Positions 15,987-29,374 of a stretch of DNA of 32,000 bases are shown in pieces. Every line of letters starts with the position of its first letter. Position 1 is the stretch's first letter. Below the pieces are notes generated by a model. The model was given only the letters and a program-made list of their open reading frames with translations. It was not told the DNA's origin and did no database searches. The position numbers and the translations under genes were made by a program. This DNA comes from Methanopyrus kandleri AV19 (GTDB lineage Archaea > JAADCQ01 > Methanopyri > Methanopyrales > Methanopyraceae): contig NC_003551.1 of assembly GCF_000007185.1 (NCBI RefSeq), positions 1,590,001 to 1,622,000 on the forward strand, read 5' to 3'.

Positions 15987-16042
15987 CCTCGATACCGCCG
16001 ATGACGACAAACCTGGGCTCGGATCCCGTGAAGAGCCGTGTC

Positions 16043-16858
16043 CTAGCCGAGGCGGCGTCGCGGCACTATCGCCGGGAGAACGGGTACTGTGACGTTCGCC
16101 GAACCCGAGGCCGGAGTCCGCGACTGACCACGACGCAGCGCACCCGTCAACCGCAGGAAGGCCAGGGCCGCGTGGTACGCCCTCTCAACGCCCGACGGAC
16201 CCGCATCACGTGGCACCTCTAGAGTGATCACGTCAATTCCGAACCGGCGCGCCACGGATCTTATCGAGCCCCTCGGGGCGCTCTTTACTAAGGGCACGAA
16301 TCCTGAGGACCTCGCCAGCTCGTCCACGAATTCACTCTCCTCATCGGTTAAAAGCGCTCCCTGGCGAGGTACCCCACTACCGCAGTGCATATCCAACCAG
16401 TACTTCACCCTATGGGAGAGCGCGAACCGCACGAGATGCCACGTCAGGGATCCGGGTATATCCGCTGTCCGGTTAGGATCTACGCCGTCGACTAACCTCG
16501 AGTTGGCCGCCAGCCCCGCCGGGTTGACGGCGGGGATCACGTATACAGTACCTATTACGGAAGTCGGACTCAGCGCGTCCAACAACTTCAACAACGCTAT
16601 CACTGTCCACACCTCGTCGCCGTGGACACCGGCGGTCAAAAGCACGGCCGGTCCGGGACCTCCCCGGAACTCGAAGACCACGGTGCCTTCGACGGAGTGT
16701 CTGTAAACCACCTCCGAGCGTGGGCCGTGGGGCGCGTGCTGGACTAAAACGGGGTTCTTCAGTATGTTACCCTTGGAACCCCAATCGTACACCGTCCACA
16801 CCGCCTCACAACATCCGGACGTCGGGAGCGCTAGCAGGACTAACAGAACCGCGATCAA
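16043..16858 (-). CDS. secreted/lipoprotein M14-like zinc hydrolase (succinylglutamate desuccinylase/aspartoacylase family)
   Basis: 271 aa. N-terminal signal with a lipobox-like LALPTSGCC. GVHGDE, NPAG and DMHCG fit the AstE/AspA zinc-ligand pattern. Confidence 0.7.
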   Translation of the reverse strand: MIAVLLVLLALPTSGCCEAVWTVYDWGSKGNILKNPVLVQHAPHGPRSEVVYRHSVEGTVVFEFRGGPGPAVLLTAGVHGDEVWTVIALLKLLDALSPTSVIGTVYVIPAVNPAGLAANSRLVDGVDPNRTADIPGSLTWHLVRFALSHRVKYWLDMHCGSGVPRQGALLTDEESEFVDELARSSGFVPLVKSAPRGSIRSVARRFGIDVITLEVPRDAGPSGVERAYHAALAFLRLTGALRRGQSRTPASGSANVTVPVLPAIVPRRRLG

Positions 16859-17216: not shown

Positions 17217-17297
17217 GGTGAACCCCCTCGGCTGAGAGGAGTCTCGTCACAGACTCGGCCCGTCAGCTCCTCTTCATTGGGGCCCGTAAGACACCGG

Positions 17298-17314: not shown

Positions 17315-17348
17315 CAACCGAGCGTCGGACGCCGGACGAGGAGATCGA

Positions 17349-17378
17349 CCACGAGGATGAGGATGAACCGATGAGTGG
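17349..17378 (+). promoter_or_regulatory. candidate box C/D-like kink-turn in the rpl7ae 5' leader
   Basis: Stem CCAC (17349-52) pairs with GUGG (17375-78). There is a 3-nt bulge GAG (17353-55), tandem sheared G.A pairs GA (17356-57) with GA (17373-74), and U.U (17358/17372). The 3' stem strand runs into the SD GGGGUGAU (17377-84), 6 nt before the ATG at 17390. C-like box AGGAUGA, D-like box AUGA. Confidence 0.35.
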
Positions 17379-17389
17379 GGTGATGGTTA

Positions 17390-18199: not shown

Positions 18200-20462
<2,263 letters not shown>

Positions 20463-27642: not shown

Positions 27643-27943
27643 CCCCGATCACCCCCCGCTGGACTTCTTTGCTAACCTTTAGGATAGAAGCCAGCACGAT
27701 GTCCGCGAGCGCCGGATCCAGCCCCTCTGTTTTAAACCTCTTCCTCCACCTCTCCCGGAGCTCCTTCTCCCGCTCCTCGTCCGTCAGTGGTAACCCCTCC
27801 TGAGCCTTTACGCGCCCTATTTCCCGCGCCACCTTCAGGCGCTCGATGACTGCGTCCAGCAAACACTCATCGATGCGGTCTATTTCGCGCCTGAGCTCCT
27901 CGAGCACGTTCAGGCCCCACGGTTCTCGTTTCCAGTACCTCAC
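27635..27943 (-). CDS. chorismate mutase (AroQ class)
   Basis: LEELRREIDRIDECLLDAVIERLKVAREIGRVKAQEGLPLTDEEREKELRER is the AroQ helix pattern. Start uncertain: GTG 27943 or GTG 27907. The Arg-rich 5' part of track ORF 27635..28045 is the out-of-frame aroK 3' region. Confidence 0.8.
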   Translation of the reverse strand: MRYWKREPWGLNVLEELRREIDRIDECLLDAVIERLKVAREIGRVKAQEGLPLTDEEREKELRERWRKRFKTEGLDPALADIVLASILKVSKEVQRGVIGDG

Positions 27944-28727
27944 CTCTATCGGACCAAACTTCGGATACCTCTCTAACGTCCGACTTCGTCTCGCAGAGGG
28001 CGACGAACGCCGGCCCGGTTCCCGAAAGCCCCGCCGCCGCAGCACCTGCTTCTAAAGCTTCGACCACGGGTTCGAATTCGTGACCCAGGGCGGAGCAGTA
28101 CACCGCCGAGTTGATCAGCATTGCTCCCCGGTAATCCCCCGTCATCGCCCTCCGGAAAGCAGTCTCGGCGGCAGGAGCTAACAACTCGAGACGGTTCACA
28201 TCCACCTCCGAGGTTTCGACCTTACCTCCCGGGAGCAGGATCACCGCATAGGGGTACGGAAGCTCGCGGATATCCAGCACTCGGTGCTGATCGTTCAGCG
28301 TCAGCACTAAGCCACCTAAGTACGATGCACAGGCGTCGTCGTAGGCCCCTGTTACCGTCACACCAGCCCTGATGCTGGCCTCGACGCCGAGTCGGACGAC
28401 CTCGAAGGGTTCCGGCTCACGTCCTAGCTCTTTGAGCAGGGCTTCGACCACGGCGTTGGACACGGCACTGCTGCTGGCCAGCCCCATCGCAATCGGGATT
28501 TCGGAGTCGACCTCGATCTCGAAGTTCAGTTCCTGACCGACGTGTTCGCCGACGACCTCCACGCACCGTTCAACGAGTGACGTGTCCTCCACGTCCGTGT
28601 GAATCTCCGTGGAATCGGAAAGTTCCGCTCTGACTGAAACTGTTAGATCTAACGCGTAGGCACAACCTTTTTTGGCAGAGATAGCGTTGACAACGGTACC
28701 GGCGGCGTACGCTATTCCCTCCCCCAA
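27867..28727 (-). CDS. aroK: archaeal GHMP-kinase-type shikimate kinase
   Basis: 286 aa: GIAYAAGTVVNAISAKKGCAYALDL...IPIAMGLASSSAVSNAVV (GHMP motif II)...SGTGPAFVAL. TTG start with a GGGGTGA RBS. Confidence 0.85.
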   Translation of the reverse strand: MGEGIAYAAGTVVNAISAKKGCAYALDLTVSVRAELSDSTEIHTDVEDTSLVERCVEVVGEHVGQELNFEIEVDSEIPIAMGLASSSAVSNAVVEALLKELGREPEPFEVVRLGVEASIRAGVTVTGAYDDACASYLGGLVLTLNDQHRVLDIRELPYPYAVILLPGGKVETSEVDVNRLELLAPAAETAFRRAMTGDYRGAMLINSAVYCSALGHEFEPVVEALEAGAAAAGLSGTGPAFVALCETKSDVREVSEVWSDRGEVLETRTVGPERARGAQARNRPHR

Positions 28728-28774
28728 ACGTCTTCACCCCGGAAAACGCTGATCAGAGCCCGAGCGCGGGCCCG

Positions 28775-28929
28775 CCCCGGTTCGGCAGGCGGCGGTGAGG
28801 TGGGGGTTATCCGCCGATGAACCGCCGTTCAACGGCCGGGGTACACGGGCGATGAGCCCCGTGGCCCGACCGGGCGGAGGCGGGCTCGGTTCCCGGCGAT
28901 GACGCCCCGGTCCCGTCGGGCGGGGCACA
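28775..28929 (+). ncRNA. candidate double-hairpin K-turn sRNA (H/ACA-like), antisense to the flanking genes
   Basis: HP1: lower stem 28775-80/28836-41. Internal loop UUCGGCA / CAACGG. 9-bp helix 28788-96/28821-29. K-turn with GA (28797-98) facing GAU-GA (28816-20). Apical stem GGUGG/CCGCC with loop GGGUUAU. Then U-ACA (28843-45). HP2: stems 28856-60/28922-26 and 28864-70/28915-21. Helix CGGGCG/CGCCC(C)G. GA (28877-78) facing GAU-GA (28898-902). Apical stem GGCGGG/CCCGGC (one G.G mismatch) with loop CUCGGUU. Then ACA (28927-29). G+C ~75% in a non-coding spacer. No TATA box identified upstream. Confidence 0.4.
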
Positions 28930-28930
28930 G

Positions 28931-29374
28931 TCACTCCAGTCTCTCCATCACAAACCGACACTCTTCCTCATCGATGTCGATGCTCGCGGTTCTCATCCTG
29001 ACTCCGAAGGTCTCCTCGGTCGCTTTTAGCACCAGGGAGGCGAAGGGGCACACCACCGGGACCTTGTCACGCTTTAAGAGTTCCCGCTTCACATCCGAAA
29101 ACGGACACTCGACGATCCTCAGCTCAACAGTATTCTTCTTTTCTTCCGCTAGAACATCACCGATATCACCAAGCGATTCTATGGTTTTCTTCACGTCATG
29201 TGCTAATGAATTAGCCGTATCTCCAGTTATTTCCAATAGTTCCTCGTCTTTTATGTATTTCATCATTGCTCTACCTGCAATTCTATTTAGCGCCAATGCC
29301 ATTTCACCGTGAGTCTCGAATAGGGCCTCTTGAAGGCCTACGATAAACGCTTTGTATACTCGCTCTTTCGACAA
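28931..29374 (-). CDS. small V4R-like (4-vinyl-reductase domain) putative ligand-binding protein
   Basis: 147 aa: GEMALALNRIAGRAMMKYI...VELRIVECPFSDV...VPVVCPFASLVLKATEETFG...IDIDEEECRFVM. The spacing of the Cys-Pro-Phe motifs and the terminal Cys recalls V4R/COG1719 proteins. The 5' half is low in GC (~40% by hand count). Confidence 0.45.
   Translation of the reverse strand: MSKERVYKAFIVGLQEALFETHGEMALALNRIAGRAMMKYIKDEELLEITGDTANSLAHDVKKTIESLGDIGDVLAEEKKNTVELRIVECPFSDVKRELLKRDKVPVVCPFASLVLKATEETFGVRMRTASIDIDEEECRFVMERLE

Follow-up and report, generated by a model that had tools for sequence, protein, structure and literature searches.

Within the window (the whole stretch of 32,000 nt of Methanopyrus kandleri AV19 DNA that was analysed), a spacer of 203 nt (28728-28930; 74.4% G+C) separates two genes, both of which lie outside the RNA described below:

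27867-28727, minus strand: archaeal GHMP-type shikimate kinase gene (aroK), with the Pfam domains GHMP_kinases_N/C; its relatives are named "shikimate kinase [Methanopyrus sp.]"
28931-29374, minus strand: gene for a 147-aa protein, taken from the ORF list; its synteny with aroK is conserved in every relative

The composition of the spacer agrees with the figure of about 75% G+C given in the original prediction, which was made from the letters alone. The label "V4R-like" attached there to the 147-aa protein was, on the other hand, not reproduced: a Pfam search with one copy of the protein at E <= 0.01 gave no match. Precomputed tables list just a weak match of this protein to PF27323 (RdxA_C). 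A 75-aa ORF inside the spacer has zero Pfam matches. The pentamer GATGA is found on the plus strand of the spacer at 28816, 28851 and 28898, the three positions already pointed out, while its frequency on the same strand of the 32 kb window (59 copies) leads to an expectation of approximately 0.37 copies per 203 nt.

There is little doubt that the spacer encodes the box H/ACA sRNA 6 of M. kandleri, a plus-strand RNA of 184 nt which consists of a short leader followed by two hairpin-ACA modules. Using RNA-seq, 126 C/D and six H/ACA sRNAs were described in this organism (Su, Tripp and Randau, 2013; NAR 41:6250; PMC3695527), and the published 184-nt sequence of "H/ACA box RNA Nr6" matches positions 28746-28929 of the plus strand with zero mismatches and the same ends. 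Table S1 of that publication places Nr6 at genome position 1,618,746, in the orientation "pos" and, as befits an abundant RNA, with a coverage of 35,300, and remarks that it "contains two k-turn motifs, 3' terminal ACA"; the legend of Fig. S1 attributes two K-turns and two guide regions to sRNA 6 (Su et al., 2013). In sequence, strand and ends, the spacer RNA and sRNA 6 are thus the same molecule. The H/ACA-like plus-strand sRNA that had been read from the raw sequence, in which an ACA comes after each of two K-turn hairpins, is Nr6, and the transcript that it called for exists in published RNA-seq data. The implied novelty does not hold, inasmuch as the description of this RNA dates from 2013: the call was correct, but it is not a discovery. 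The term "unannotated" applies to Rfam, whose models gave no match anywhere in the window at gathering thresholds and which has no family for sRNA 6, but not to the literature. Database annotation of this published RNA is missing, and no Rfam model reaches threshold for it. The case also shows that a genuine archaeal H/ACA guide can be recognised by reading motifs from the letters alone. Compared with the parts of the 2013 publication available here, which give neither rRNA targets nor comparative data for sRNA 6 and count two K-turns and no third one, the present analysis adds the following: (i) two target sites in 16S rRNA; (ii) the restriction of the RNA to Methanopyri; (iii) the remodelling of the guide of the second hairpin; and (iv) a candidate third K-turn.

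The features of the RNA, all of them on the plus strand, are the following (HP1 and HP2 being the first and second hairpins):

28746-28929, plus strand: the complete RNA, H/ACA box sRNA 6 of M. kandleri, 184 nt, an exact match to the published RNA-seq sequence
28746-28757, plus strand: tail of the 5' leader, ending in an invariant GA (28756-57; G1 and A2 of the alignments, invariant in seven sequences)
28758-28773, plus strand: leader element GCCCG-AGCG-CGGGC-CC, either a local hairpin (28758-62 / 28767-71) or a helix of 28758-62 with linker 28846-50
28774-28842, plus strand: HP1 (H/ACA motif 1), from direct reading, an Rfam match to HgcG hairpin 3 and RNAalifold
28774-81 / 28835-42, plus strand: HP1 lower stem, from RNAalifold and direct reading
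28782-87 / 28830-34, plus strand: HP1 pocket, to which the invariant G.U pairs 28788-89 / 28828-29 are added
28788-96 / 28821-29, plus strand: HP1 upper stem, nine pairs, two of them G.U
28797-98, 28816-18 and 28819-20, plus strand: HP1 K-turn (GA, bulge GAU and GA, respectively)
28799-803 / 28811-15, plus strand: HP1 apical stem, GGUGG / CCGCC, with loop GGGUUAU
28843-28845, plus strand: ACA box 1, invariant in all aligned sequences
28846-28855, plus strand: linker CGGGC-GAU-GA with the third GAUGA (28851-55); linker conserved throughout the alignment, GATGA invariant in seven sequences
28856-28926, plus strand: HP2 (H/ACA motif 2), from direct reading and the HP2 alignment
28856-61 / 28921-26, plus strand: HP2 lower stem, 6 bp
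28862-67 / 28913-20, plus strand: potential HP2 pocket, UGGCCC / CCGUCGGG, 15 nt from ACA
28868-76 / 28903-12, plus strand: HP2 upper stem, 9 bp, with a bulged C28908
28877-78, 28898-900 and 28901-02, plus strand: HP2 K-turn (GA, bulge GAU and GA, respectively)
28879-84 / 28892-97, plus strand: HP2 apical stem, with a G.G mismatch (28880/28896)
28927-28929, plus strand: ACA box 2, with which the published RNA ends, invariant in the HP2 alignment

As expected of an archaeal H/ACA sRNA, a discrete small RNA is present on the plus strand (28746 to 28929 in the published RNA-seq), and each of the two ACA boxes forms the ANA trinucleotide directly 3' of a lower helix. The folding energy of the spacer is no better than that of dinucleotide shuffles (z = -0.73 and -0.34 for the two strands); since neither value is significant, stability was dropped as evidence, and the case for an H/ACA RNA rests on motifs, conservation and published expression. 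Upstream of 28746, no promoter element is visible, in line with the lack of a TATA box noted before, and no TATA/BRE is conserved among relatives. The 5' end of the RNA might have arisen by processing.

Each module is built of lower stem, internal loop, upper stem and a kink-turn (GA / GAU-GA), with ACA directly behind the module. Going by what is established for archaeal H/ACA RNPs, L7Ae would bind each of the K-turns, and Cbf5-Nop10-Gar1 would bind the lower stem together with the ACA; the strands of the internal loop would pair with rRNA on both sides of a uridine, which Cbf5 would convert to pseudouridine.

From 5' to 3', the upper part of HP1 reads GGCGGCGGU (28788-96), GA, GGUGG, GGGUUAU, CCGCC, GAU, GA and ACCGCCGUU (28821-29). 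Below it lie the internal loop UUCGGCA / CAACGG and a core lower stem (28775-80 / 28836-41), followed by U and ACA, exactly as laid out in the original prediction. The 6-bp lower stem drawn there is present but too short, for it gains the pair G28774.U28842 and a covarying pair at 28781/28835 (U.G, U-A or C-G). The top of the pocket is 14 nt away from the ACA (U28829 to A28843) as drawn, and 15 or 16 nt away when one or two of the G.U pairs are opened, which is within the archaeal range of 14-16 nt. The descriptor of archaeal H/ACA motifs asks for a lower helix H1 of at least 7 bp, a loop of 5-11 nt per strand and an upper helix H2 of at least 5 bp (Muller et al., 2008), and HP1 offers 7-8 bp, 6-7 / 5-6 nt and 9 bp, respectively. 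With GA / GAU-GA closed by G-C and G-C pairs, the HP1 K-turn agrees with the sequence consensus. It is separated from the pocket by 9 bp as drawn, by 8 bp in the predicted complex with the target, and by 7 bp with both G.U pairs open. Functional motifs of Pyrococcus have upper stems of 5-6 bp, those of 7 bp being non-functional (Muller et al., 2008); both hairpins of sRNA 6, with 9 bp as drawn, depart from this rule, which is derived from Pyrococcus and may not transfer to Methanopyrus.

At permissive thresholds, Rfam aligned the whole of HP1 (28772-28842, plus strand only) with hairpin 3 of HgcG at 22.3 bits (E = 2.6e-4). The covariance search that had been proposed thus returned an H/ACA match on the predicted strand, but a sub-threshold one: the match covers positions 198-268 of the 276 of the model, and the gathering threshold of RF00064 (77 bits, over a three-hairpin model) was not reached. 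A weaker permissive match was to Pab19. Hairpin 3 of the Pyrococcus RNA Pab40/Pf7 (RF00064, HgcG) is built like HP1, with a 7-bp upper stem, a GA...GAUGA K-turn, a pocket and a lower stem, and in both of them 15 nt lie between the upper stem and the ACA. Nevertheless, HgcG has three hairpins, and its guides are GGUUAG/UGUUA versus GGCAGG/UUCAA in HP1; since the guide sequences differ, so do the targets. The likeness is interpreted as class similarity, not orthology.

The conservation of the RNA was followed in Methanopyrus and Methanopyri MAGs, whose shikimate kinases are 90%, 71% and 64-65% identical to that of M. kandleri. MAGs of the distant Methanopyri include GCA_054046225, GCA_013154335 and GCA_054016775. 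A spacer of 192-203 nt lies between aroK and the 147-aa gene in every relative contig fetched, with differences in length that are not multiples of three. Seven distinct homologous spacers, together with an eighth obtained by a pattern scan of GTDB genomes, make up eight sequences from Methanopyri MAGs. The scan found the RNA in four Methanopyri species only (as MAGs; AV19 itself was not among the matches), evidence that sRNA 6 is confined to Methanopyri. The invariant elements are (i) both ACA boxes; (ii) the 5' GA and the G(A/G)UGA of each K-turn; and (iii) the HP1 pocket strands CGGCAGG / UUCAACG. The positions of GA / G(A/G)UGA and of ACA are therefore retained among the relatives, where compensatory changes are present as well, in agreement with the expectation set out beforehand for a genuine H/ACA-like RNA.

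RNAalifold independently yields the lower, upper and apical stems of HP1. Over the alignment, 95% of the cells of the HP1 structure are paired and four pairs have changed on both sides; when, as a control, the partners were slid by 1-3 columns, 35-49% of the cells were paired, with 0 double-sided changes. The covarying pairs include 28780/28836 (G-C, G.U or A-U), 28793/28824 (C-G or U-A, with the intermediate U.G in the relative L023) and 28795/28822 (G-C or A-U). The pair 28796/28821, which adjoins the G.A pairs, varies freely, as is usual for K-turns at this position. In the upper stem of HP2, three double-sided exchanges (A-U to G-C, G-C to C-G and C-G to G-C) distinguish Methanopyrus from the distant Methanopyri; they were read by hand, given that MAFFT set one gap a few columns off.

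HP2 repeats the plan of HP1 with some irregularities. The sequence of the module and its ACA (28927-29) are as first reported, whereas the G.G mismatch 28880/28896 in the apical stem and the bulged C28908 in the upper stem had been overlooked. Against the descriptor of Muller et al. (2008), the H1 of HP2 measures 6 bp, its possible loop 6/8 nt and its H2 9 bp plus the bulge. Its K-turn follows the sequence consensus, with GA / GAU-GA and a closing G-C pair followed by the G.G mismatch, and the 15 nt between pocket and ACA fall inside the archaeal range of 14-16 nt. In M. kandleri, the pocket strands pair with each other: the minimum free energy (MFE) is -45.7 kcal/mol versus -35.9 kcal/mol for the open fold, so that opening the pocket costs about 10 kcal/mol (37 C parameters, free RNA). 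The earlier remark that HP2 lacks an open guide pocket is, in consequence, right for the MFE structure of the free RNA, but an H/ACA-type pocket is possible at this cost. In the distant Methanopyri L012 (2809-3000, minus strand) and L016 (2804-3000, minus strand), the MFE structure of HP2 is a canonical H/ACA hairpin with its pocket open. There, the 5' pocket strand is UAAGAAAGGU, open, A-rich, 10 nt long and absent from Methanopyrus, and the 3' strand is CCGCCG; the 5' strand of M. kandleri is shortened. As the 5' strand is replaced and the state of the pocket differs across Methanopyri, the guide has been remodelled within the class. The guide of the distant Methanopyri implies the target pattern CGGCGG-UN-ACCUUUCUUA, for which no convincing target was found in M. 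kandleri rRNA (best score 9.5).

For the prediction of targets, the 16S (1514 nt) and 23S (3100 nt) rRNAs of M. kandleri were transcribed by hand from alignments in the supplement of Dennis et al. (2015), so that single-letter errors are possible except at the two target sites, which were re-read. At every U of both rRNAs, uninterrupted pairing with the two strands of the pocket was sought, with G.U allowed, 0-3 or 0-4 opened bp at the top of the pocket and 1-3 target nucleotides left unpaired. For each hairpin, one candidate stands clearly at the top:

HP1: 16S U12 (E. coli U17), GUUGA-UC-CUGCCGGA; 5+8 bp, one G.U; 15 nt to ACA; 34 of 1000 shuffles as good
HP2: 16S U730 (E. coli U755), GUCCGACGG-UGA-GGGCCG; 9+6 bp, two G.U; 15 nt to ACA; 37 of 1000 shuffles as good

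Support is modest, with a shuffle p of about 0.03-0.04 for each of them under flexible rules. In the case of HP1, which tentatively guides 16S U12, this is the only match at or above the reporting cut-off, and the uridine belongs to the central-pseudoknot loop. The 11 core pairing nucleotides (UCAAC + CGGCAG) are inside the invariant pocket segments, and the guides of the relatives keep 11-13 bp. HP2 may guide 16S U730, once its pocket has been opened. In the closest relative (L006), just 4 of the 6 bp of the 5' arm are left, and the gap is a non-canonical one of three nucleotides, UNN, an arrangement which can be functional (Muller et al.). Both target sites are conserved in most of seven aligned archaea. 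In any case, the two assignments are tentative leads, not findings.

Pyrococcus uses an H/ACA guide to pseudouridylate the 16S 5' region predicted for HP1. Motif 2 of Pab105/Pf3 acts on this same region, although not necessarily on the same nucleotide: if the numbering of P. furiosus starts at AUUCCGG, its position 15 equals E. coli U20, three nucleotides from U17. No sequence similarity between Pab105 and the spacer RNA was detected by the Rfam search. Five viral-contig loci that match the 5' end of archaeal 16S rRNA were also considered; Rfam detected no rRNA at these loci, and they were discarded as chance 18-mers.

The leader and the linker allow two pairings. Upstream of the GA at 28756-57, the sequence of the leader tail is not conserved among relatives. 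The local hairpin of the leader element is 94% paired, and its two mismatches occur in exactly the two sequences whose outer pair is A-U, whereas all 35 cells of the long-range helix 28758-62 / 28846-50 are paired. In five sequences, the outer pair of this helix (28758/28850) is G-C; in the other two it is A-U, C28850 having changed to U exactly where G28758 has changed to A. The resulting GA-stem / stem-GAU-GA layout repeats the plan of the K-turns of HP1 and HP2, and so the leader GA (28756-57), this helix and the linker GAU-GA could, judging from the aligned sequences, form a third K-turn. It is a candidate, given that the covariation amounts to a single evolutionary event and that no ordinary helix continues beyond the G.A pairs. 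G28766 (RNA position 21) is the best-scoring predicted 2'-O-methylation target of C/D sRNA 117 in Fig. S1, and of sRNA 9 in Table S1, of Su et al. (2013). Under the long-range helix model, the segment 28763-73, which includes G28766, is single-stranded.

A more speculative and improbable proposal has two separate parts. One is that sRNA 6 carries a third, "split" K-turn of a kind not described before, whose linker GAU-GA abuts the lower stem of HP2. The other is that HP1 clamps the 5' pseudoknot segment of 16S rRNA; the sRNA 6 particle would then be a U3/snR30-like folding chaperone of the archaeal small subunit besides, or instead of, a guide for pseudouridine formation. According to another and quite unlikely explanation, the H/ACA-type RNP would mainly serve as a pre-rRNA folding chaperone, and not for pseudouridylation, where HP1 holds the 16S 5' segment GGUUGAUCCUGCCGGA, destined for helix 1 and the central pseudoknot, and HP2, with its pocket collapsed, is a structural, protein-binding element. 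Eukaryotes do have non-modifying chaperones of both the H/ACA (snR30/U17) and the C/D (U3) types. The best complement of HP1 spans the pseudoknot-forming 5' end of 16S rRNA, the upper stems exceed the 5-6 bp of the catalytically active Pyrococcus motifs, and the HP2 pocket of M. kandleri is self-paired. Nevertheless, the distance of 14-16 nt to the ACA is canonical, a U occupies the expected unpaired position, a Pyrococcus H/ACA guide does pseudouridylate the same region, and a non-modifying archaeal H/ACA RNA is not documented in the literature examined. A pseudouridylation guide is hence preferred.

The other two explanations deny that the spacer encodes an H/ACA RNA of this kind. As both neighbours are on the minus strand, an operon would transcribe the spacer, whose minus strand also folds stably (-104.9 kcal/mol); the spacer could then be envisaged as a stabiliser, terminator, attenuator or similar cis-acting structure that the minus-strand mRNA contains between the cistrons of the 147-aa protein and aroK. 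It is very improbable, for the published RNA is on the plus strand with defined ends inside the spacer; GA/GAUGA, ACA and the Rfam match are all specific to that strand; and the invariant G.U pairs 28788/28829 and 28789/28828 become C.A mismatches on the minus strand. Finally, the leader CUGA (28749-52) might be taken as box D and the linker GAUGA as box C of a C/D, or composite C/D-H/ACA, sRNA, the more so as the linker of the distant relatives carries a perfect GUGAUGA and Pyrococcus Pab21 occurs with and without a C/D motif. Archaeal C/D box sRNAs do share the L7Ae-binding GA/UGAUGA K-turn chemistry with sRNA 6. But they carry box C (RUGAUGA) towards their 5' end and box D (CUGA) towards their 3' end, together with internal D'/C' boxes and guides of 10-12 nt, and measure 55-97 nt in M. 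kandleri; sRNA 6 departs from this type in that (i) the order of the boxes is reversed, D-like at 5' and C-like at 3'; (ii) CUGA is not conserved in L011, L012 and L016; (iii) with 184 nt, it has no guide-box spacing of the 55-97 nt type; and (iv) instead of the C-guide-D' / C'-guide-D layout, which is absent, it contains ACA boxes and pocket hairpins. Su et al. (2013) did not class Nr6 as C/D. The C/D reading is extremely improbable, and the box H/ACA sRNA is retained.

As regards paralogy, sRNA 6 and sRNA 1 (AV19 position 356800) align with a score of 35, above all of 200 shuffles (mean 19.9, maximum 29), a similarity which could be due to H/ACA motifs common to both or to distant paralogy. 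Local alignments with H/ACA sRNAs 2-5 are no better than shuffles; for instance, CGAUGAGCCCCG, common to sRNA 6 and sRNA 4, scores 26 versus a shuffle maximum of 32.

The window contains other published RNAs. The C/D box sRNAs 123, 124 and 125, none of which was detected by Rfam at gathering thresholds, match exactly at 15995-16059 (plus strand), 17219-17286 (minus strand) and 17334-17388 (plus strand), respectively. Two abundant fragments of MK1600 (guaB), from its 3' UTR and its 5' UTR, match exactly at 18880-18955 and 20398-20440, respectively, both on the minus strand. Together with sRNA 6, these matches place the window at 1,590,001-1,622,000 of AV19, its plus strand being the forward strand of the genome. 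For these three sRNAs and the two UTR fragments, the strands in the window agree with the published table.
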